From assembly GCA_018267585.1 (NCBI GenBank), contig JAFDYE010000482.1, forward strand, positions 14,380 through 78,379: a DNA stretch of 64,000 bases, given 5' to 3'. The notes beneath the pieces are model-generated. The model was given only the letters and a program-made list of their open reading frames with translations. It ran no database searches and was not told where the DNA came from. This stretch comes from Bacteroidota bacterium (GTDB taxonomy: Bacteria; Bacteroidota; Bacteroidia; Chitinophagales; Chitinophagaceae). Positions 2,117 through 19,611 of this stretch are shown piece by piece (position 1 is the first letter of the stretch; each line of letters starts with the position of its first letter). The position numbers and the translations under genes were made by a program.

Positions 2117-3892
2117 ATGGAAAATGAATCCTTTCTTACAAAATACGTCTTCAGCACCGATCACAAGATAATAGCCAAACAGTTCCTCATCACCGGCATA
2201 TTGTGGGCGCTGGTCGGGGGCTTTTTTTCAGTCCTTATGCGTCTGCAGCTCGGCTTCCCCAACACGTCTCATACCTTTCTGCAGCGACTGGCCGGCCATC
2301 TGTTCGTTAGCGGCAAGCTCCAGCCCGAGACCTACTATCAACTGATGACGATGCACGGTACGATCATGATCTTCTTCGTTCTCACGGCAGGGCTCAGCGG
2401 AACATTTGCCAATTTCCTTATTCCACTGCAGATAGGAGCAAGGGACATGGCGTCCCCCTTTGTGAACATGCTGTCTTACTGGGCCTTCTTCGTGGCGAGC
2501 GTCATCATGATCGCCTCCTTCTTTGTACAGGGCGGCCCCTCGGGAGTGGGATGGACTGCCTACGCACCACTTAGCGCACTAAAGGATGCGGACTCTGGCT
2601 CCGGCACAGGACTCGACCTCTGGATCACAAGCCTGGCCTTCTTTATCGTCTCGACGCTGATGGGCGGCATTAATTACATATCCACGATTCTCAATATGCG
2701 CACAAAAGGAATGAGCATGACGCGGCTTCCCCTCAGCACCTGGGGTCTGCTGTTCACCGCCATCATGGGCCTCCTTTCCTTCCCGGTGCTGCTGGCAGCA
2801 TTCGTGCTCCTCCTGTTCGACCGCAACGCAGGGACCAGCTTTTTCCTCTCGGACATCTTCATGACCTCGACCGCACGCGCAATGCCCTATGAAGGCGGGA
2901 GCGCTATCCTCTATCAGCACCTCTTCTGGTTCCTTGGTCACCCTGAAGTCTATATCGTCATATTCCCCGCCTTCGGGATCGTCTCCGAAGTAATGAGCGT
3001 CAATTGCCGAAAACCGATCTTCGGCTATACGGCCATGGTGTATTCGATGTTCGCTATTCTTTCCCTCTCCTTCATGGTCTGGGCCCACCATATGTTCGTA
3101 ACGGGAATGAACCCCTTTCTCGGCTCGCTGTTCGTGCTGTTCACACTGCTGATCGCCATTCCGTCAGCCGTCAAGGTCTTTAACTGGCTGGCAACGCTCT
3201 GGCGGGGCAACATCCATTTCACCCCCGCAATGCTGTTCGCCATCGGATTCGTCAGCACCTTCATCTCGGGCGGGCTGACCGGCATCTTCCTTGGCAATTC
3301 CACCATCGATATCCAACTGCATGACACCTATTTTGTGGTAGCGCATTTCCACCTGGTCATGGGCGTATCCGCCGTTTTTGGTATGTTCGCGGGCATTTAT
3401 CACTGGTTCCCAAAAATGTTCGGCCGGTTCATGGACCCGGTGCTCGGCTATATCCACTTCTGGATAACCCTCGTATCCGTCTACTTCATCTTCTGGCCGA
3501 TGTATTACGAAGGGCTGGCGGGTATGCCGCGCCGGTATTTCGATTTCTCGGGCTGGATATCTTTTAACCAGTTCGAAAAACTCAACATCGTCATTTCCTC
3601 CTTTGCTTTTTTGGCATTCTTCGTACAGCTGATATTTGTCGTTAATTTCTTCCGCTCCATCTTCAAAGGAGAAAGGCTGAAAGAGAAAAATCCCTGGAAG
3701 TCCAATACCCTCGAATGGACGACACCAATAAAACCCGGTCACGGCAACTGGCCGGGAGAGATACCCGAGGTCTTCAGAGGCCCCTACGAATATTCAAAAG
3801 ACGGAAGAGAGTTCATTCCGCAGGACGAACAGCCGGGATCCGTCAATAGTGACATTTCTGACATTCCGTCCCGCCAATATTCTCAACGGTGA
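2117..3892 (+). CDS. ctaD: Cytochrome c oxidase subunit I (heme-copper oxidase, A1 type), stand-alone copy
   Basis: Motifs MHGTIM, GARDMAS..N (D-channel D and N), WFLGHPEVY, WAHHMF, IAIPSAVK (K-channel K), HDTYFVVAHFH and GMPRRY. ATG 2117 preferred over the track's GTG 2015. Confidence 0.95.
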   Translation: MENESFLTKYVFSTDHKIIAKQFLITGILWALVGGFFSVLMRLQLGFPNTSHTFLQRLAGHLFVSGKLQPETYYQLMTMHGTIMIFFVLTAGLSGTFANFLIPLQIGARDMASPFVNMLSYWAFFVASVIMIASFFVQGGPSGVGWTAYAPLSALKDADSGSGTGLDLWITSLAFFIVSTLMGGINYISTILNMRTKGMSMTRLPLSTWGLLFTAIMGLLSFPVLLAAFVLLLFDRNAGTSFFLSDIFMTSTARAMPYEGGSAILYQHLFWFLGHPEVYIVIFPAFGIVSEVMSVNCRKPIFGYTAMVYSMFAILSLSFMVWAHHMFVTGMNPFLGSLFVLFTLLIAIPSAVKVFNWLATLWRGNIHFTPAMLFAIGFVSTFISGGLTGIFLGNSTIDIQLHDTYFVVAHFHLVMGVSAVFGMFAGIYHWFPKMFGRFMDPVLGYIHFWITLVSVYFIFWPMYYEGLAGMPRRYFDFSGWISFNQFEKLNIVISSFAFLAFFVQLIFVVNFFRSIFKGERLKEKNPWKSNTLEWTTPIKPGHGNWPGEIPEVFRGPYEYSKDGREFIPQDEQPGSVNSDISDIPSRQYSQR

Positions 3893-5063
3893 TGGAGTCC
3901 TTCGCGCCCGTGGCCAGCTCACGGGCAAATCTGCTGTAGATGCTATAGAACCTGTTGCCCTTATTGGTGCCATCGGGAAAATCGACCTTGGTGGTCCGGT
4001 GACAGTTGATACACCAGCCCATGCTCAAAGGAGCGAACTGCCGCACCTCATCCATCTCCTGCACCGGCCCGTGACAGGTCTGACATTGTATCTTGCCGGC
4101 TTTTGTGTGCTGGGCGTGGCTGAAGAAAACGTGATCGGGAAGACTATGGATCCTGACCCATTCGATCGGATGTCCGGCCTTCGTGTATTTCCTCTGATCC
4201 GGATCATAGCCGGTATAGCCGTATAGCTTTCTGATCTCGTCATTGGGGTTGACCCTGCTACCGTCCTCCCGCTGCAGCCGCTCACCACGGTAGTCATTGA
4301 TGGCCAGGTGACAGTTCATACAAATATTGGGAGAGGGGACAGTAGCATGTTTACTTTCAAGGGCATTGGTATGACAATACAGACAGCTTATCTGATTGAG
4401 GCCTGCGTGTATCCTGTGTGAAAAATAGATCGGCTGCTTCGGCTGATAGCCCTGTGACCGCCCCAGTCCTATCCCAAGCTGTGTCATCCAATAGCCAACC
4501 ACGCCGAACAGCAAAATGCTGGCCACAGTTATATATATCTTGTTCCGGTAGACCGGGACAGGCGGGGGCGCAACCAGCCCCTGTTTTTCTTCGGCCAGTT
4601 TCTTAAGATTGAGATTGTGCAGATAGAGCCCAATTACAAAAAGGCCGAGAATGCAGCTGACGATACCGTAAAGCAGACTGTGATCCTCCTCAGGAGGGTT
4701 AGGGAGGGTCGAAGTATTGGTCTTCGCAAGCGGCTCTGCATAACTATTGACATAACTGAGAATGGCGTCTATTTCGGCGTCGGAGAGTCCCGGGAAGGTA
4801 TTCATCGGCGCACGACCGTACTGGTTATAGAGATTTGTGAAATAAGTGTTCCCGGAAGCCAGTACCTTGGTGTTGTTGTGGATCCAGTCGTGAAGCAGCT
4901 TGCGGTCGGTGACCCGGTCTGTGACGCCCTTTAACGCCGGACCGGTGATGACCCTCACCGGATTGTGACACTGGGCGCAGTTGGTCTGGAACAAAGCCTT
5001 ACCATCCTGGGCATAAGCCCGGAAAGAAAGAAATAAAAGGACAAAGAAAAAAAGCCGCGCCAT
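3843..5063 (-). CDS. Hexaheme c-type cytochrome, ActA-like (signal peptide, monoheme domain, 2 TM helices, pentaheme c3-type domain)
   Basis: Six CxxCH motifs: CAQCH, CLYCH, CMNCH, CQTCH, CINCH, CQKCH. QPIYFSHRIHAG, WVRIHSLPDHVFFSHAQH and SMGWCINCHR match alternative complex III ActA. Start set at MARLFFFVLL (5063). Confidence 0.85.
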   Translation of the reverse strand: MARLFFFVLLFLSFRAYAQDGKALFQTNCAQCHNPVRVITGPALKGVTDRVTDRKLLHDWIHNNTKVLASGNTYFTNLYNQYGRAPMNTFPGLSDAEIDAILSYVNSYAEPLAKTNTSTLPNPPEEDHSLLYGIVSCILGLFVIGLYLHNLNLKKLAEEKQGLVAPPPVPVYRNKIYITVASILLFGVVGYWMTQLGIGLGRSQGYQPKQPIYFSHRIHAGLNQISCLYCHTNALESKHATVPSPNICMNCHLAINDYRGERLQREDGSRVNPNDEIRKLYGYTGYDPDQRKYTKAGHPIEWVRIHSLPDHVFFSHAQHTKAGKIQCQTCHGPVQEMDEVRQFAPLSMGWCINCHRTTKVDFPDGTNKGNRFYSIYSRFARELATGAKDSITVENIGGTECQKCHY

Positions 5064-5099
5064 GTCGTGGCTTTTTCCAAAAAAAATCATGCCAGCCAC

Positions 5100-5378
5100 C
5101 TACAGCAGATTGCTCGTCATGGGATCGATGACCGCCTTTACTTCTGCGATCGTATTGACGGGGAAACCGCCCAGACGGGCATGTTCCCGGATCAACTCCT
5201 CACTTTCAGCAATATGAATGCAGTAGATCTTGTCTTCGGTGACAAAAGACTGTATCCAGTGATAGGGCTTGCCCAGCTGACAAACCACTTCGCAGGAGGT
5301 CCTTGCGATCTCCTGCAGCTCTTCCGGCGAAAGGTTTCCGGCGCCGGGTAGTATTCTCTCGATAACAAACTTCTTCAT
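5100..5378 (-). CDS. DUF4242 protein, cytoplasmic single domain
   Basis: MKKFVIERILPGAG...WIQSFVTEDKIYCIHIAESEELIREHARLGGFP matches the DUF4242 pattern. No signal peptide. Confidence 0.85.
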   Translation of the reverse strand: MKKFVIERILPGAGNLSPEELQEIARTSCEVVCQLGKPYHWIQSFVTEDKIYCIHIAESEELIREHARLGGFPVNTIAEVKAVIDPMTSNLL

Positions 5379-5404
5379 ATGAGTGAGTTTTTTGATAAGT
5401 ACTA

Positions 5405-5475
5405 CAAAGTTGTCCCTTATATCCTTCAACAATGATAGAGGTTCTCCCTATTTAAGGCGGGCGGATTCCCTATTT
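5405..5475 (-). promoter_or_regulatory. TAGGG direct-repeat operator plus -7-like element for the DUF4242-cytochrome unit
   Basis: Minus strand AAAATAGGGA...AAATAGGGA with TAGGG starting at 5472 and 5450 (22 bp apart), then CAACTTTG ending at 5405, 45 nt from the proximal TAGGG. Confidence 0.65.
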
Positions 5476-8067
5476 TAGGATCCCCAGCCTGAGCGCCTCC
5501 TGTACCGCCTTGGTCCGCGAGTTGACATCCAATTTAAAAAGGACCGAAGAGATATGATGGTCGACGGTCTTGGCGGAAATAAAGAGCCTGGCCCCTATTT
5601 CCTTGTTCTGCAACCCCTCCTTCAATAATTCGAGAACACCCAGCTCCCGGTCGGTAAGAAGGGCCGGATTGGCAAGGGTCGTTTTCCTGAGACCCCGGGG
5701 AATGCTTTTGATGCCGGAAATCCTCATTTCCAGCTTCATCTTCTCATAGACCGCCCCGGCACCCAGCTGATTGACGATCGTCAACGCCTTTTTCTTGTCC
5801 TCCCCGCCGCCCTCGAACAGGGCCAGCGCCTGCTCATAAGGACAACCCAGCCGTTCCCATAAAGCCGCGGCCCGGACAGCCCCAACCGACGTACCCAGTC
5901 GATAACCCTCGTAGGTTTCCCGGAGGGGAACCTCCAGTTTTCGGCTCCTCAACAGCCAGAAATCGAATTCGCTATTCTCATAAAGGCTGGCCGTCTGCCC
6001 GATCAGCCCGATCGCGCACTCGATGGCCTCCTTTTCGAGCAGCAGGCTTCCGGTAAGCCATTCATACTCCAGCAGGGCTACCAGGGCAGGAAGTATCCGC
6101 TGCAGCTCCATCGCCTCAAAAGCCATCGCCTTCGCCTGCAGCAGAAGAGGAAGAGCATCCCCTTCCCCCTTCCTCATCTTTATCGTCCCGATCACCACCA
6201 GCGCACCCATCCTGACGATCGGCGCCTGGTCCTCATTCTTCAGGAGCTCCTCCGAAAGGCTGCAGGCCTCTTTCCAACGTCCCGTATCCAGCATCAGCCT
6301 GGCCTTTCCAGACAACATATAGGTCCTCCAGGAACCCAGCTCCCTCTCCTCACAATATTGAATGCCCTGCGCAAGTACCCCGGCGGCAAATGCATAGTCC
6401 TTTATTTTTATACCGCCATTGCTGAGGCTCGTATAGGCCTGGGCCGCCAGTTCATGATAACCATGTTTCAGCGCCAGCTCAAGGCTTCGCTGCAGCAGCT
6501 GAACCCCTCTTTGCCGGTACGCCGGTATCCGCATCTGAACAGCCCCGACATTGTTGAGAGCATGGGAAAGGATCTCGTCATCCCCCAGCTCGTTCGCGAT
6601 GACGATCGCGTTCTCACCCCAATGGATGCATTCCACGATTTGATCGGAAAGCATCTTCAACTGCGACATATTGCTGTATGCCATGGCCTTGGCCCGCGAA
6701 GAAGGCTGGGCTGCGAGGACCTCGATGGCCTGCTGCCCGTAGCTTTCGGCCTGCTTGCGATTGCCGTCGAACCACCAGAGACGCGACAGGAACCACATCG
6801 AATCCCCTATTCTCCCCGTCTCCTCCTTCTCCTTCCAGATGGCAAGCGCCTTTCCCTGGTAAATAATGGCCTCCTTGATCCGGTTGGTCAGATAGCATTC
6901 ATAGGCATAGGACGCATAGAGCCTCACCAACAGGTCCTTGTCCTTCCCCTGGTAGTATTCGATGGCCGTATAGTACAGTTTGGAAGCCTCGACGTGCGCT
7001 CCGACCTCCGCAGCCGCAGCAGCAGCAAGAGGAGCATAGCGAACGACCAGCTCATATTCATTGGCATTTTTCGCATGATGGACGATCCGTTCTATCTCGC
7101 GGTGCTCCTCAAAGCTCCCCCTGAACAGCTCCAGGATCTTCTTGTTCAGCGCGATCCGCACAAAAGGCGACAGCGAGGTCTCGATCGTCCTCCGGTATAG
7201 CTCGTGCTTAAAGAAAATAAGCCCCTCCCGGACGAACAGGATCTTCGCCTCGAGGCATTTCGCCAGCGCCGACGCATACATTGGCTCGACCGTTTCCAGG
7301 TATTTTACCTCAAAGCCCGTCGGCAGTACGGACAGCAGGTCCCATACCTGCTTGGTCTTTTCGTCCAGCCGGTGATACACAGAGAGGACGGCGTCTTTAA
7401 TATTGTCGGGGACCCCCGGACTGTAACTCGCCAGGATCTCGTTCACATAAAATGGATTTCCACCGGAAATGCTATAGACGTCCTCCCCGTTATAGCCCTT
7501 CTCCTTCGCCAGCTTCTCAACCGCAGGTCGCGACAACGGCGTCAGGTGCAACCGGGTGAAAGAGTCGGGAGGCAGCTGTCCCAGGACATTTCGCAATGGA
7601 TGTAAAGAATGGATCTCGTCGTCCCGGTACGTGAGAACAAAAAGACAGCGTAGCCGGGCAATGCGCCTGGCCAGGAACTTTATAAAATCCAGTGTGGCCT
7701 CGTCGGCCCAGTGGATATCCTCAAAGATGATAACGGACGGCGACGACCGGCTGGCGATCTCATGGATGAACCGGTTGAAAAGTGCGGCCCTGTCCTCCTT
7801 CCCGCCGGTATTCTCCCAGCCATCGCCGTGTATCTGCCAGATAATGTCATACAGCGGAGCCAGTGGACGCGGCGTGAACAGCGCGTCGCAGCTGCCCTGG
7901 TAAAAGCTGGCGACCTCTCCCTTTTCTCTGCAAAAAGCCCTTATCAGCGAGGTCTTTCCGATACCCGACTCTCCGCTTATAAGAATACAATGTCCCTCCC
8001 CATCTGCAATATCTCTTAGCCTTGATTGCAGAGTCGATAAAAAACCGGCTCTTTCGATCAACTCCAT
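5470..8067 (-). CDS. LAL/MalT-like regulator: N-terminal AAA (STAND-type) ATPase, helical/TPR-like middle, C-terminal LuxR HTH
   Basis: Walker A GESGIGKT; Walker B IIFEDIHWAD; GGNPFYV; C-terminal LTDRELGVLELLKEGLQNKEIGARLFISAKTVDHHISSVLFKL. Confidence 0.92.
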   Translation of the reverse strand: MELIERAGFLSTLQSRLRDIADGEGHCILISGESGIGKTSLIRAFCREKGEVASFYQGSCDALFTPRPLAPLYDIIWQIHGDGWENTGGKEDRAALFNRFIHEIASRSSPSVIIFEDIHWADEATLDFIKFLARRIARLRCLFVLTYRDDEIHSLHPLRNVLGQLPPDSFTRLHLTPLSRPAVEKLAKEKGYNGEDVYSISGGNPFYVNEILASYSPGVPDNIKDAVLSVYHRLDEKTKQVWDLLSVLPTGFEVKYLETVEPMYASALAKCLEAKILFVREGLIFFKHELYRRTIETSLSPFVRIALNKKILELFRGSFEEHREIERIVHHAKNANEYELVVRYAPLAAAAAAEVGAHVEASKLYYTAIEYYQGKDKDLLVRLYASYAYECYLTNRIKEAIIYQGKALAIWKEKEETGRIGDSMWFLSRLWWFDGNRKQAESYGQQAIEVLAAQPSSRAKAMAYSNMSQLKMLSDQIVECIHWGENAIVIANELGDDEILSHALNNVGAVQMRIPAYRQRGVQLLQRSLELALKHGYHELAAQAYTSLSNGGIKIKDYAFAAGVLAQGIQYCEERELGSWRTYMLSGKARLMLDTGRWKEACSLSEELLKNEDQAPIVRMGALVVIGTIKMRKGEGDALPLLLQAKAMAFEAMELQRILPALVALLEYEWLTGSLLLEKEAIECAIGLIGQTASLYENSEFDFWLLRSRKLEVPLRETYEGYRLGTSVGAVRAAALWERLGCPYEQALALFEGGGEDKKKALTIVNQLGAGAVYEKMKLEMRISGIKSIPRGLRKTTLANPALLTDRELGVLELLKEGLQNKEIGARLFISAKTVDHHISSVLFKLDVNSRTKAVQEALRLGILK

Positions 8068-8122
8068 AGTGGTTGTTTATAAGCAGACCTCCGGTCCGCT
8101 GCCCGAAGGCTTAAATTCTCAT

Positions 8123-8194
8123 AAATTAGGGGGACAGTGCTGGTAAAATAGGGAAAAATCCTTACATCCTATAGCCGAATCGAAGGTTCCTTTG
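8123..8194 (+). promoter_or_regulatory. TAGGG direct-repeat operator plus -7-like element for the tandem DUF4242 gene
   Basis: TAGGG at 8127 and 8149 (22 bp apart), then TTCCTTTG ending at 8194, 45 nt from the proximal TAGGG. Same geometry as 5405..5475. Confidence 0.65.
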
Positions 8195-8239
8195 TAATGG
8201 AAATTCATATTCTGATCATCAATTCAAAGCCACTTCATC

Positions 8240-8866
8240 ATGAAAATCTTTATTGTCCACACAGCACTCGCAGCATTGAGCCTGCTCCCTTTCCGATTAC
8301 TGGCCCAGTCGGATAATACAGTCGCCGAACCCAAAAATGGCGACCATTTGTACCTGGACGTCCACCACCTTGGTCCGGGTAAGGTCACAGCGTCGGCAGT
8401 CGCAGAGGCACACGCAAAGGATCTGGCTGTTCAAAGGAAATACGGGGTGCATTTTCTCAAATATTGGGTCGACGAAACCGGGGGAGATGTTTACTGCCTT
8501 TCTTCTTCTGCTGATACCCAATCTATACGCAGAACGCACGCTGAAGCACATGGCCTGCTCCCGGATCAGATATATCCGGTAACCGAAGGTAAGGAGTCGG
8601 CCACAAACGGTGAAAAGAATTTCTACCTCGATATCCACGACTTCGGCACCCAAAAGGTTACTCCCCGGGACGTGGCCGCGGCCCACCAGAAGGACCTGGC
8701 GGTAGAAGGCAAGTATGGCGTGAACTTTATCAACTACTGGGTCAATGGAGGCATGGTCGTCTGCCTGTCCCAGGCTCCGGATTCCTCAGCCGTGATCAAC
8801 ACGCACAAGGAAGCCCATGGACTTATTCCGCAACACATTATGCAGGTCAAACCGGGGGAGAAATAA
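8240..8866 (+). CDS. Exported tandem DUF4242 (SCO4226-like putative metal-binding) protein
   Basis: Signal peptide (LLA-QS) followed by two copies, offset 91 aa, of YLD[VI]H...A.AH.KDLAV..KYGV.F..YWV...V.CLS......TH.EAHGL.P..I..V. Confidence 0.85.
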   Translation: MKIFIVHTALAALSLLPFRLLAQSDNTVAEPKNGDHLYLDVHHLGPGKVTASAVAEAHAKDLAVQRKYGVHFLKYWVDETGGDVYCLSSSADTQSIRRTHAEAHGLLPDQIYPVTEGKESATNGEKNFYLDIHDFGTQKVTPRDVAAAHQKDLAVEGKYGVNFINYWVNGGMVVCLSQAPDSSAVINTHKEAHGLIPQHIMQVKPGEK

Positions 8867-12515: not shown

Positions 12516-13310
12516 ATGAGCGCGATTAAGGTCTTATATGCCGAAGACGAGATCTTTTTAGGCAAGATCGTCAAAGAGACGCTCGAGAGCCGGGGATTCG
12601 AGGTAGTAATGGTAACCGACGGCGCTGCCGTGCTGAGCGCATTTACCAGCAGCGCTCCGGACGTCTGCGTATTGGACGTAATGCTGCCGGGCCGCAACGG
12701 TTTTGAGCTGGCGACCGATATCCGTGCTATCAACGACGACATCCCCATCATTTTCCTAACCGCAAAGACCCAGACAGAAGATCTTATCAAAGGGTTCCGC
12801 ACCGGCGGAAATGACTACATCCGAAAACCATTCAGCATGGAAGAGCTGATCATCCGCATCGAGAACGTACTGCGCATCAGACGTTCCGGCCCTTCGGCAG
12901 CCCCCGCTGCAGAGACCATCGCCATCGGCAGGTATACCTTCCATACCCACCGGCAGGTATTGGCTTATCCTCACCCTCCGGGCTTGGATCACCCTCTCCA
13001 CCAGCCACTGTTGGATCACACGCCTCACCGGCTACCGGCGAATCAGCCCCTCCACCAGCCATTGACGGAAGGAGACTATGAACGCAAGCTTTCCTACAGG
13101 GAGAGCGAGCTGCTAAAGCAACTGTGGATAGGAAGGGACCATATCATACCACGCGAAGACATCCTCCGCGCCATATGGGGCAACGACTCCTTCCTCAACA
13201 GCCGCAACCTGGACGTTTATATTACAAAGCTGCGCAGCTATCTGAGATACGACAGCCGGATCGAGATACTGACGATAAAGGGCGTCGGCTACAGATTCGT
13301 GCTGCCCTAG
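12516..13310 (+). CDS. OmpR/PhoB-family response regulator with a His/Pro insertion
   Basis: YAEDE, LDVMLPGRNG, FLTAK, DYIRKPF; C-terminal LSYRESELL...SRNLDVYITKLR...IKGVGYRF. Confidence 0.93.
   Translation: MSAIKVLYAEDEIFLGKIVKETLESRGFEVVMVTDGAAVLSAFTSSAPDVCVLDVMLPGRNGFELATDIRAINDDIPIIFLTAKTQTEDLIKGFRTGGNDYIRKPFSMEELIIRIENVLRIRRSGPSAAPAAETIAIGRYTFHTHRQVLAYPHPPGLDHPLHQPLLDHTPHRLPANQPLHQPLTEGDYERKLSYRESELLKQLWIGRDHIIPREDILRAIWGNDSFLNSRNLDVYITKLRSYLRYDSRIEILTIKGVGYRFVLP
12986..13066 (+). repeat. 3 x 27-bp imperfect in-frame tandem repeat
   Basis: ggatcaccctctccaccagccactgtt / ggatcacacgcctcaccggctaccggc / gaatcagcccctccaccagccattgac. Confidence 0.8.
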
Positions 13311-13393: not shown

Positions 13394-16210
13394 ATGCTCC
13401 GGAGTTACCTGGTTTTGACCTTCTACCTGTCCGCGCTGTCAGCTTTTTCCCAGACAATGACCATAAAAGGCCGGGTCTGCGATTCGTCTACGAACAACCC
13501 CCTTGCCTATGCGACTATATCGCTGGTCAGCGCCCGCGACACCACCCTGATCAGCTTTGTGATAGCCGATTCCGCAGGGCAGTTCCTGCTGAAAAAACCG
13601 GGGCCCGGTGATTATTTGCTTTCCGCCTCCTATGCAGGCTATCTTCCCGCATGGAGGCCGCTGCCGTACCTGTCCGGCGACGGAATTCACGAGACAGCTG
13701 ACATACACCTCGTGCCGGTCACCAACCTGCGGGACGTCCGGGTCACAGCAAGACGCCCCCCTGTTGAGATCAACAACGACACCATCGAATTCAATTCAGA
13801 GAACTTCAGGACGCAGCCAAACGCCGTGGTAGAGGACATGCTGAAAAAAATGCCTGGCGTAACCGTAGAAAGCGATGGAACGATCAAGGTCAACGGACAG
13901 ACGGTGCGTCGCATATTGGTCAATGGGAAGGAGTTCTTTACCGGCGACGTGAAAATGGCGACTAAAAATCTGAACGCCGATGCCGTGGACAAGGTACAGG
14001 TCTTCGATCGCAAAAGCGACCAGGCGGCATTTACAGGTGTCGACGACGGCAATGGCGAGAAGACGATCAATCTTAAATTGAAAAAAGACAGGAATTTCGC
14101 CACTTTTGGGAAGATCACGGCGGGAGGAGGATCGGGCTCCGGAGGTGGTCGGTATGACGCCCAAACTAATATCAATAAATTCAAGGGAGATGAACAGCTC
14201 TCCTTTTTGGGCATGGCCAACAACACTAACCGGCAAGGCTTCTCGCTGATGGACGTCCTGAACTTTACCGGCGAACTGTCTCGCGGGATGCGCAACGGCG
14301 GTGGCAGAATAAATATCCAGTCAGGAAACGCCGGCAGCAACAACGGACTCCCCGTGACCGGGCTCGGGCAAAACCAGCAGGGCGTCGCCAGGACATCCGC
14401 GGGCGGTCTAAACTACAACAATTCCTGGGACAGCGGCAAAGGGTCCTTGAACTCCAACTACACGGTCAGCAATATACGCCTGGTAACCAACAAAACATCT
14501 CTTTCACAGAACTTGGCGCCCGGGAATAATTATACGACTCAGGACACGACGGGCACGGTATACGAGGTCACCCAGCACCGGCTGGCCGCTATCCTCGACC
14601 AGCAGCTGGGCAGCAGCACATCCTTCCGGCTGACGCCTTCCATGACCTGGCAGCACTCCGGGAAAAATGCCGCCGACCGCTACGCCAGTCAGACATCGGA
14701 CGGCCAGCTGCTGAATGACGGTTTCAGCGACAACGGAACAAACCCCTCTGCCTTCGATTTTTCGACCGAACTGCTGCTAAGGCATCGCCTTGCAAAAAAG
14801 GGTAGAACTATATCCGGAGACTTCAATATCGCCTACAATCATAGCAGGCAGGATGGCAGCCAGATCTCGGATAACCAGTACTATCGCGGCACCGACTCTC
14901 TGATCGATCAGATCACAGGCCGTGACGCGACCACCAGAACCCTGGGCGGCAATATCACCTACACCGAACCGATCGGCCGGCGTTCACTGCTTGCCCTGAG
15001 CAGCTTCCTCAACGTCAATACGGGCGCCAGCAACAAGCAAACCTTTGACTACAACCCCGGTTCGGGAAAACATGACATGCCGAACTCCCTGCTGAGCAAC
15101 GATTTTGGCAGCGAATACCGCTACTCCGGCGGAGGCATCAGCTTCCGAAGCAACCAAAAAAAGTTGAATATCACCGTCGGCGCCAATATACAGTCGGCAT
15201 CGCTGAACGCTACCAACCATTCAAGCGGCTCATACATCCGCCAATCGTTCACCGACCTCCTGCCCAACGCTATCTTTCAATACAATTTTTCTCAGACAAG
15301 AAATCTCCGGTTCGACTATAGCACCTACACCACACAGCCATCCGTCACCCAGTTGCAGCCAGTGCCGGATATCAGCAATCCCCTGAACACCACTACAGGT
15401 AATCCGACCCTCAAAAGAAGCTATACTCACAGCGTTTCGCTCAACTATTTCTCGGCCAGCCCTACCCGGGGGAGACACCTTCTCTTTTTTTTCAATGCCA
15501 CAGACGCCCTCGACGCCATCGTACAAAGCGACTCCGTCAGCTCCGTAGGCACAAGGACAAGCCGTCCCGTTAACACCAATGGCACAGGCAATCTTCTGAC
15601 CAATCTGGAGTATGGCTTCCCGATCCGCGCACTGCACGCCCGGCTCGAGCTGGGCAGCTTCTTTATTTATAGCCTTAATAAGGCCTTTGTCAACGGCGCA
15701 GCCAACAGGATCACCTCCACCACCCTGCGTCCCAACCTCTCCTTCGACTATGACATAGCAGATAAATTTGATCTTGAGCTGACCGCTTCCGTATCCTTCT
15801 ATACAGGCACCTATTCTTTGCAGCCGGCGCTGAACACCCACTACCTCCGGCACAATTATGGAGCGACAACCACCAACTACCTGCCCCTGGGCTTCTCGCT
15901 TCACAACGAGTTCTCCTATATACTCAATACCGGCAGGTCAGATGGATACAATACCAACATTCCCCTCTGGAATATCTCGCTTGCCAGACCTTTTCTAAAG
16001 AATGACCGGGCCGAGATCAAGCTAGGCGTCATGGACCTGCTGGATAGGAATAACGGGATCACCCGCAGCATTAACCAGGGAAATATCCTCGACGAAAGAT
16101 ATAATGTGCTACACCGCTACTTCCTGCTGAGTCTCACCTACAGCCTCAACAAAGCGGGCCTGCGGACAAAAGGAGGACCCAATATTAAAATAAGGAGTTT
16201 TGATAGATGA
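13394..16210 (+). CDS. Outer-membrane beta-barrel protein (TonB-dependent-receptor-like, carboxypeptidase-regulatory-like N-domain)
   Basis: Signal peptide; DTIEFN..NFRTQPNAVVEDMLKKMPGV; KNLNADAVDKVQVFD; C-terminal RYFLLSLTYSL. Confidence 0.88.
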   Translation: MLRSYLVLTFYLSALSAFSQTMTIKGRVCDSSTNNPLAYATISLVSARDTTLISFVIADSAGQFLLKKPGPGDYLLSASYAGYLPAWRPLPYLSGDGIHETADIHLVPVTNLRDVRVTARRPPVEINNDTIEFNSENFRTQPNAVVEDMLKKMPGVTVESDGTIKVNGQTVRRILVNGKEFFTGDVKMATKNLNADAVDKVQVFDRKSDQAAFTGVDDGNGEKTINLKLKKDRNFATFGKITAGGGSGSGGGRYDAQTNINKFKGDEQLSFLGMANNTNRQGFSLMDVLNFTGELSRGMRNGGGRINIQSGNAGSNNGLPVTGLGQNQQGVARTSAGGLNYNNSWDSGKGSLNSNYTVSNIRLVTNKTSLSQNLAPGNNYTTQDTTGTVYEVTQHRLAAILDQQLGSSTSFRLTPSMTWQHSGKNAADRYASQTSDGQLLNDGFSDNGTNPSAFDFSTELLLRHRLAKKGRTISGDFNIAYNHSRQDGSQISDNQYYRGTDSLIDQITGRDATTRTLGGNITYTEPIGRRSLLALSSFLNVNTGASNKQTFDYNPGSGKHDMPNSLLSNDFGSEYRYSGGGISFRSNQKKLNITVGANIQSASLNATNHSSGSYIRQSFTDLLPNAIFQYNFSQTRNLRFDYSTYTTQPSVTQLQPVPDISNPLNTTTGNPTLKRSYTHSVSLNYFSASPTRGRHLLFFFNATDALDAIVQSDSVSSVGTRTSRPVNTNGTGNLLTNLEYGFPIRALHARLELGSFFIYSLNKAFVNGAANRITSTTLRPNLSFDYDIADKFDLELTASVSFYTGTYSLQPALNTHYLRHNYGATTTNYLPLGFSLHNEFSYILNTGRSDGYNTNIPLWNISLARPFLKNDRAEIKLGVMDLLDRNNGITRSINQGNILDERYNVLHRYFLLSLTYSLNKAGLRTKGGPNIKIRSFDR

Positions 16211-19499: not shown

Positions 19500-19611
19500 C
19501 AAGCATGGCCCGGCGGTTGCTCCCGCCGGAAGGCAACAGTGACTGACCGAAGGGAAATTAGGGGTTTATACTGTTGGTGCAACCACCGAAGAACGCTACC
19601 TTAGGCTTGCT

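Follow-up and report, generated by a model that had tools for sequence, protein, structure and literature searches.

A stretch of 64,000 nucleotides from a Chitinophagaceae bacterium of the Bacteroidota (GenBank assembly GCA_018267585.1, contig JAFDYE010000482.1, positions 14,380 to 78,379), here called the window, contains a three-gene cassette that is a real, widely conserved and unstudied gene switch of soil Bacteroidota. At its centre is the gene for a LAL-type regulator (LAL). Divergent from it lies a gene for an exported protein with two DUF4242 domains in tandem (tDUF), and downstream, on the same strand, a gene for a cytoplasmic protein with a single DUF4242 domain (sDUF). Both DUF4242 genes have the same bipartite operator in a rigid geometry, and in the source genome the operator is restricted to these two promoters. 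The cassette is probably a self-contained regulon in which LAL is the dedicated activator that drives tDUF and sDUF. It is an undescribed but mechanistically ordinary regulon of this kind, with effectors of unassigned function.

The source assembly is a 7.0-Mb metagenome-assembled genome, 95% complete, with relatives labelled Puia (Chitinophagaceae). Open reading frames (ORFs) and Pfam matches confirmed the genes and positions given in an initial annotation of the window, which had listed LAL, the divergent exported tDUF, sDUF and, 36 bp further on, a cytochrome with six CxxCH motifs (Table 1). The source genome has no DUF4242 domain beyond the cassette.

A scan of genome contigs yielded at least 476 relatives of LAL. 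From these, 80 loci were kept, from Chitinophagaceae, Mucilaginibacter, Dyadobacter, Spirosoma, Chryseolinea and others. Only LAL (79 loci), tDUF (53) and sDUF (52) recur in them, and on this tblastn searches with the window proteins agree with an unbiased, all-against-all clustering of every ORF of the 80 loci. In the related loci tDUF is divergent and about 120 bp upstream of LAL, and sDUF follows LAL by about 90–100 bp on the same strand; sDUF is downstream of LAL in 50 of 70 loci. Among the 63 loci with both flanks, both DUF4242 genes are present in 34, only sDUF in 11 and only tDUF in 6. The genomic contexts of the cassette are unrelated and its distribution is patchy. Within the genus 9 of 24 genomes have a LAL orthologue (54–88% identity), and an even draw of 401 near-complete Bacteroidota genomes contained LAL in 2 and the DUF4242 family PF14026 in 47.

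Both DUF4242 promoters contain two direct repeats of the consensus AAAATAGGGAA, 21–22 bp apart. In the tDUF promoter of the window TAGGG is at 8127 and 8149 and the G of TTTG is at 8194. In the sDUF promoter TAGGG is at 5472, where its TAG is the LAL stop codon, and at 5450, with the G of TTTG at 5405. In both the repeats are spaced by 22 bp, and the distance to the -7 box, measured from the T of the proximal TAGGG to the G of TTTG in a TAnnTTTG-like box, is 45 nt. These distances are kept in relatives: the start-to-start spacing of the repeats is 21–22 bp in 89 of 92 orthologous promoters, and the 45-nt distance is exact in 67 of 69 (33 of 35 for sDUF, and all 34 of the tDUF promoters with TTTG in range). 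Is the operator pair of sDUF, whose distal repeat usually overlaps the LAL stop codon, simply a by-product of coding constraint? In several loci (L028, L033, L035, L048, L075, L097 and G005) the pair lies away from the stop codon and is nevertheless intact, and it is therefore a cis-element.

A position weight matrix (PWM) trained on other genomes only was used to scan the 7.0-Mb genome for operator pairs, with reversed sequence as the null. The sDUF pair of the window scored 42.1 bits, the best in the genome, and the tDUF pair 36.4 bits; the next best pair scored 23.3 bits and the null maximum was 25.1 bits. The window operator pairs are far beyond chance and are the only significant pairs in the source genome. 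The operator geometry that the initial annotation had described as common to both DUF4242 promoters was thus borne out, in the 22-bp spacing, the 45-nt distance and the PWM scores alike. A third target, proposed near 19555 (19537–19604), was rejected, being a single half-site of 7.2 bits with no partner at 21–23 bp. The scan revealed no extra regulon members above control in the source genome, and in five isolate genomes a degenerate operator pattern matched the sites of the cassette itself, with further matches at control frequency. A lone half-site of 17.5 bits at 16185–16199 (+), within the 3' end of an outer-membrane barrel gene (13394–16210), has no partner and is probably due to chance.

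The operator follows LAL and not DUF4242. It is present, at 45.2 bits, beside a 40%-identical LAL in a genome of another family (G434), and was not found at 17 DUF4242 loci without LAL, where scores were at most 18 bits. Elsewhere the operator also precedes a lipoprotein family, small secreted proteins and a TonB-dependent receptor, none of which is in the window cassette; the receptor has a pair of 35.2 bits 86 nt before it (L094:14635-17586).

Table 1. Features of the cassette and its neighbours, with positions counted from the first nucleotide of the window
Feature	Position	Strand	Description
LAL regulator	5470..8067	-	865 aa; Pfam AAA_16 1.5e-20, TPR_12 1.4e-08, GerE 2.2e-17
tDUF, tandem DUF4242 with signal peptide	8240..8866	+	208 aa; PF14026 x2, 4.2e-41
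sDUF, single-domain DUF4242, leaderless	5100..5378	-	92 aa; PF14026 2.4e-21
ActA-like cytochrome, a neighbour and not a conserved member	3843..5063	-	406 aa; Pfam and NCBIfam matches, CxxCH count
Orphan COX1 paralogue, a neighbour	2117..3892	+	PF00115 2.2e-145
Bipartite operator, tDUF promoter	8123..8155	+	half-sites 8123-8133 and 8145-8155, 22 bp apart; 36.4 bits
-7 box, tDUF promoter, Bacteroidota type	8187..8194	+	TTCCTTTG; 45 nt past proximal TAGGG
Bipartite operator, sDUF promoter	5444..5476	-	half-sites 5476-5466 (overlaps LAL stop codon) and 5454-5444; 42.1 bits
-7 box, sDUF promoter	5405..5412	-	CAACTTTG; 45 nt past proximal TAGGG

The LAL regulator

By its predicted architecture the regulator is a LAL. 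It has the features looked for in a member of this class: an N-terminal P-loop NTPase with Walker A (GESGIGKT) and Walker B (FEDIHWAD) motifs, a C-terminal LuxR/GerE helix-turn-helix (HTH) domain, and a length in the range of about 800–1000 aa with a TPR-like middle region. K38, E116, D117 and HTH residues are at least 95% conserved among 71 orthologues. The GerE match covers residues 803–857, and the PDB matches are to the HTH domains of GerE, VraR, DevR and NarL. LAL is not an orthologue of MalT: the NCBIfam model PRK04841 scores 44.5 bits, below its cut-off of 537, and matches the HTH alone, and TPR_MalT matches weakly (18.5 bits, cut-off 45). Identity as a defence-type STAND protein (Avs-like) was also weighed, and was set aside in view of the LuxR HTH and of an operator that is conserved close to the promoter.

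Two known systems offer comparisons. MalT of Escherichia coli is likewise a large activator that depends on ATP, in which a P-loop domain and a superhelical sensor region precede the C-terminal LuxR HTH. MalT binds direct repeats, and its asymmetric boxes are arranged in this way upstream of promoters, as the repeats are here. MalT-type regulators sense small organic ligands. The two systems differ in operator sequence, target genes, ligand and phylum, and partners of the MalK, MalY or Aes kind are known for MalT. The LAL-type regulators of antibiotic gene clusters share the order AAA_16-type NTPase, TPR, GerE, and are also dedicated activators of adjacent genes, but here the targets would be two small genes in Bacteroidota, with promoters that have a -7 TAnnTTTG element.

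In the mechanism that we propose, LAL, a STAND-like P-loop ATPase whose TPR region would be the sensor and whose HTH is of the LuxR type, would bind the two AAAATAGGGAA direct repeats, whose spacing corresponds to two helical turns. Given a transcription start a few nucleotides past the -7 box, the repeats would be centred near -49 and -71. From there LAL would activate two promoters, that of the divergent, exported tDUF and a second, at its own stop codon, that of the cytoplasmic sDUF. In most relatives only 10–25 nt separate the LAL start codon from the distal repeat upstream of tDUF; the LAL promoter must therefore overlap the operator, and autoregulation of LAL is likely. The two DUF4242 proteins would be small ferredoxin-like outputs that probably bind one and the same small ligand, tDUF in the periplasm and sDUF in the cytoplasm. 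For this ligand a transition metal is the best guess, at rather less than an even chance. The cytochrome and COX1 would be a lineage-specific pair of neighbours, of which the cytochrome gene, at most, would be carried along on the transcript of sDUF in this lineage of Puia.

The DUF4242 proteins

Both proteins are clear members of PF14026 (gathering cut-off 28.5), with 139.4 bits over two domains for tDUF and 76.1 bits for sDUF. The tDUF protein has a leader that is hydrophobic, as it is in 45 of 53 orthologues, and that ends in A-Q in the window. Each tDUF domain is of the type that we call His, with invariant D-x-H, AH-x-K-D, W, C, H and AHG-L-x-P. The sDUF protein is of the ER type, named for E-R at its start, and from the tDUF residue set keeps only the Cys and one His; its E7, R8, E20, W41, S44, K50, C53, H66 and E79 are at least 95% conserved. 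The homologues listed for sDUF are only close relatives, named 'DUF4242 domain-containing' or 'hypothetical'.

An AF2 model of tDUF (pLDDT 90.4, pTM 0.79) has two ferredoxin-like domains of beta-alpha-beta-beta-alpha-beta topology. The best PDB match for each domain is 4oi6, the structure of SCO4226 (TMt 0.84, root-mean-square deviation (rmsd) 1.5 A, 34% identity), and matches to both domains together are at the superfamily level only, to tandem dimeric alpha/beta-barrel proteins. Judged from strand topology, the family-wide His, Cys and Asp residues should face the pocket between the sheet and the helices, a place where a ligand or a metal might well be bound.

SCO4226 of Streptomyces coelicolor (PDB 4OI3/4OI6) is the founder of PF14026, and shares with tDUF the ferredoxin-like fold and the D-x-H, AH-x-x-D, W, C, H signature. 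It is a cytoplasmic homodimer encoded beside phoU/phoRP (PMC4991794), whereas tDUF is an exported single-chain tandem. Its gene is under PhoP control and is repressed by oxidative stress (PMC4991794). Four surface-exposed nickel sites have been described in it, with a Kd of about 10 uM and from a crystal soaked in 0.8 M NiSO4, and according to the authors the liganding residues are conserved within Streptomyces only (PMC4186839). When the Ni-1 ligands (His76, Asp43, Ser46) are aligned with tDUF only the Asp is kept, as D78, and Ser46 is replaced by Gly and His76 by Tyr. NF033706, the equivalog of SCO4226-family nickel-binding proteins (cut-off 125), gives 105.7 bits with tDUF and no match with sDUF. 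The nickel or metal function that the initial annotation took from SCO4226 thus has a weak basis, in sites of low affinity (PMC4186839) of which Ni-1 has lost two of its three ligands in tDUF.

Are the DUF4242 proteins outputs of the switch, or do they sense its signal together with LAL? They also occur under other regulators. One locus (L151, 224-7171) has an operon of sDUF, a lipoprotein gene, tDUF (53% identical to that of the window) and a gene for a DUF3455 protein, with genes for a Y_Y_Y/GAF histidine kinase and a LytTR regulator in divergent orientation beside it; neither a LAL nor the TAGGG operator was found at this locus. In Bacteroidota DUF4242 is most commonly met in a protein of some 370 aa with an N-terminal His-type DUF4242 domain and a C-terminal AraC HTH, the gene for which is followed by one for an exported ER-type DUF4242 protein. 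In L114:180-1764 and L117:2283-3885 the fusion has about 366–370 aa, with an unassigned middle region between the two domains, and the ER-type gene, with a signal peptide, comes about 110 nt on. Size-matched ORFs (about 355–390 aa, N-terminal PF14026) are present in about 19 of the 47 PF14026-positive genomes of the even draw, of which these two loci were the only ones inspected.

These one-component regulators of DUF4242, cyclase-like and AraC parts resemble the LAL cassette in pairing a His-type with an ER-type protein across the membrane, under a dedicated regulator and in the same genus. They differ in that it is the ER-type protein that is exported, and the His-type domain stays in the cytoplasm as a part of the regulator itself; neither LAL nor the TAGGG operator is present. 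Of 26 genomes of the genus, 2 have both cassettes, 8 only that with LAL, 12 only that with AraC and 4 neither (Fisher p = 0.014). That the two tend to be alternatives within the genus is only suggestive, because relatives are not independent.

As the AraC fusions show, DUF4242 domains of the His type are able to serve for input, and a sensing role is therefore real for some family members. The fused type is nevertheless His, and not the ER type of sDUF. Within the LAL loci, sDUF has been lost or replaced in 17 of 63; in one (L055:7062-7472) a 104-aa YdhR-like barrel protein (PF08803) is in its place behind a 48.4-bit operator. Since the same sDUF and tDUF effectors occur with other regulators, namely the AraC fusions and the kinase/LytTR pair, these comparisons make it more likely that the DUF4242 proteins are outputs than co-sensors. 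The suggestion that sDUF modulates LAL as MalY does MalT is unlikely, as many LAL loci lack sDUF or have another gene in its place, and sDUF also occurs beside unrelated regulators.

Other associations were seen in passing. A lipoprotein family of about 200 aa (L064:1966-2568, L118:5778-7064, L151:5365-5916) is linked to the operator in several loci and is present in 12 of the 80 LAL loci. It is triplicated in one protein of 428 aa (G434) and lies between sDUF and tDUF in L151. It had no sequence match in Pfam, NCBIfam or the PDB, structure-atlas look-ups were empty, and it was not found in the genome of the window. In an unrelated metagenome lineage (L143:2679-6288) an ER-type DUF4242 gene directly follows a trio for a PQQ-dehydrogenase, an SBP_bac_3 protein and a cytochrome c, in a xoxF/J/G-like order. 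In other lineages DUF4242 adjoins a Trans_reg_C-TPR regulator (L148) or a DJ-1-AraC regulator (L147).

The cytochrome and COX1 neighbours

Beyond sDUF, 36 nt separate its stop codon (5100) from the ATG of the cytochrome gene (5063), which is convergent with the COX1 gene and overlaps it by 50 bp. The cytochrome has CxxCH motifs at residues 29, 227, 248, 327, 351 and 401, the first within a class-I cytochrome c domain at the N-terminus and the other five within a C-terminal multihaem part, and matches QrcA with 70 bits (NCBIfam). It resembles ActA of alternative complex III in its pentahaem c domain and is 63–65% identical to a paralogue on another contig of the source genome (C498), which heads a canonical act operon with ActB-like Fe-S and NrfD-like ActC genes. 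Unlike ActA, the window copy is without actB–F alongside, and its neighbours are sDUF and the convergent orphan COX1. A COX1 paralogue, 71% identical, adjoins COX2 on contig C182. The window cytochrome and COX1 are extra paralogues.

The pair adjoins the cassette only in G005 and L025, the closest Puia relatives. The cytochrome is absent from 77 of the 80 related loci, among which it was seen only in L025; a lone COX1 is 7.6 kb off in L102. In L025 (Puia sp. SMAG_U4974) a clean deletion at 12556-12760, from just past the distal repeat to the last 15–20 nt of sDUF, has taken sDUF, the proximal repeat and the promoter, and the cytochrome gene has been kept, 130 nt after LAL. Among the 26 genus genomes, seven that carry LAL have the canonical cytochrome only, and three free of LAL (G003, G007 and G022) have a second copy.

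The initial annotation had proposed that one regulator controls a DUF4242 protein on each side of the inner membrane together with an electron-transfer subunit. The first part is probably right, with cassette and operator conserved across orders, and the second is not supported. The survey of LAL neighbourhoods suggested at the time divides in the same way, with DUF4242 genes co-occurring with LAL and the cytochrome not. Linkage of the cytochrome is limited to the nearest Puia, survives the loss of sDUF in L025, and second copies of it are independent of LAL. The link to respiration, the most striking of the original claims, does not hold; a lack of conserved linkage in relatives had been named beforehand as evidence against it, and this is what was found for the cytochrome.

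Transcription from the sDUF promoter may still reach the cytochrome gene. No terminator-like site was seen in the 36-nt gap, and the cytochrome could therefore be co-transcribed with sDUF here. Among sequencing runs, traces of this DNA were found in two rhizosphere DNA metagenome runs and in zero RNA runs. Just before the cytochrome start codon lies a hairpin (5066-5098, -) with a T-run in its loop. Its arms are GTGGCT/AGCCAC in the window, CGTGGCAT/ATGCCACG in G005 and GTGG/CCAC in L025; they vary but stay complementary across the three genomes, and the pairing has therefore been kept through changes. Such a hairpin could serve the cytochrome gene in translation or as part of its promoter.

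Competing explanations and significance

Several points weigh against a self-contained regulon under LAL. That LAL is the binder is deduced purely from co-occurrence, and the direction of its effect purely from where the sites lie. Twelve of the 63 LAL loci are without the canonical arrangement, and in some a recognisable operator is missing. The possible co-transcription of the cytochrome here counts on the same side, and the idea of a metal ligand has a weak foundation in the conserved His/Cys/Asp signature and the SCO4226 data. Might the repeats then be bound by a factor other than LAL, or might LAL repress rather than activate? LuxR-type HTH proteins bind inverted repeats more often than direct ones, and the distal repeat overlaps the LAL promoter region, so that at least this promoter could be repressed. 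However, the operator tracks LAL over 40–80% identity and is absent where other regulators adjoin DUF4242, the sites are upstream of the -33/-7 region at the fixed 45 nt, which is an activator-like position, and direct repeats are what MalT itself binds. Another binder or a repressor is thus decidedly unlikely; the site positions, two-turn phasing and fixed distance to the -7 box would fit a MalT-like activator.

The role of the outputs leaves more room for disagreement. The DUF4242 proteins might be enzymes, similar to cofactor-independent oxygenases or isomerases of the dimeric alpha/beta-barrel kind, which convert a toxic or signalling molecule sensed by the TPR region of LAL. The tDUF model is similar to tandem ABM-type monooxygenases and to anthrone oxidase-like and chlorite-dismutase/HemQ folds (probability 1.0, TM 0.42–0.48), the protein that replaces sDUF in L055 is a putative monooxygenase, a Cys/His pair is conserved in both DUF4242 subtypes, and an organic ligand would be in keeping with MalT-type regulators. 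Yet the likeness is at the superfamily level only, with an rmsd of 6–7 A, none of the catalytic motifs of characterised barrel enzymes was recognised, and a His-type DUF4242 as the input domain of a transcription factor suits a binding role better; we regard an enzymatic role as somewhat unlikely. A metal- or redox-sensing module, as first proposed, in which LAL controls both DUF4242 genes and the cytochrome and sDUF feeds back on LAL like MalY, Aes or MalK on MalT, is unlikely. It would draw on the short gap before the cytochrome and the same gene order in G005, on DUF4242 as an input domain when fused to AraC, and on the position of sDUF directly 3' of LAL in 50 of 70 loci, under the LAL operator, where a feedback loop is possible. 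The distribution of the cytochrome described above and its survival in L025 speak against this, as do the His type of the fused sensor domains, the loss or replacement of sDUF and its occurrence with kinase/LytTR, and the lack of conservation of the SCO4226 Ni-1 ligands (PMC4186839). Highly improbable, in our view, is a further reading, with the two DUF4242 proteins as a two-compartment buffer or sensor of one ligand (probably a metal), sDUF reporting back to LAL through direct contact, and the orphan ActA-like cytochrome, with a partner COX1 alongside, captured on the sDUF transcript in the Puia lineage. If true, it would couple the signal to an alternative respiratory branch.

We found no paper describing the cassette. 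The literature naming DUF4242 or SCO4226 yielded nothing on Bacteroidota or a LAL, and a search for LAL, LuxR and Bacteroidetes yielded nothing relevant. The DUF4242 family is large, with 2,037 clusters at 50% identity matched by sDUF alone, and its only functional label, 'nickel-responsive', is weakly evidenced. For this family the cassette is a clean experimental handle: its regulator is dedicated to it, its operator is precisely defined, its target promoters number exactly two, and carriers of it have been cultured, so that a reporter screen for the inducing signal would be straightforward. Possible cultured carriers are Flavitalea sp. BT771, Spirosoma arboris HMF4905, Danxiaibacter flavus, Ilyomonas limi and Dyadobacter species. 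The effector pair is found under three unrelated types of regulator, LAL, AraC fusions and the kinase/LytTR pair. This recurrence points to a common physiological task that soil Bacteroidota carry out on either side of the inner membrane.

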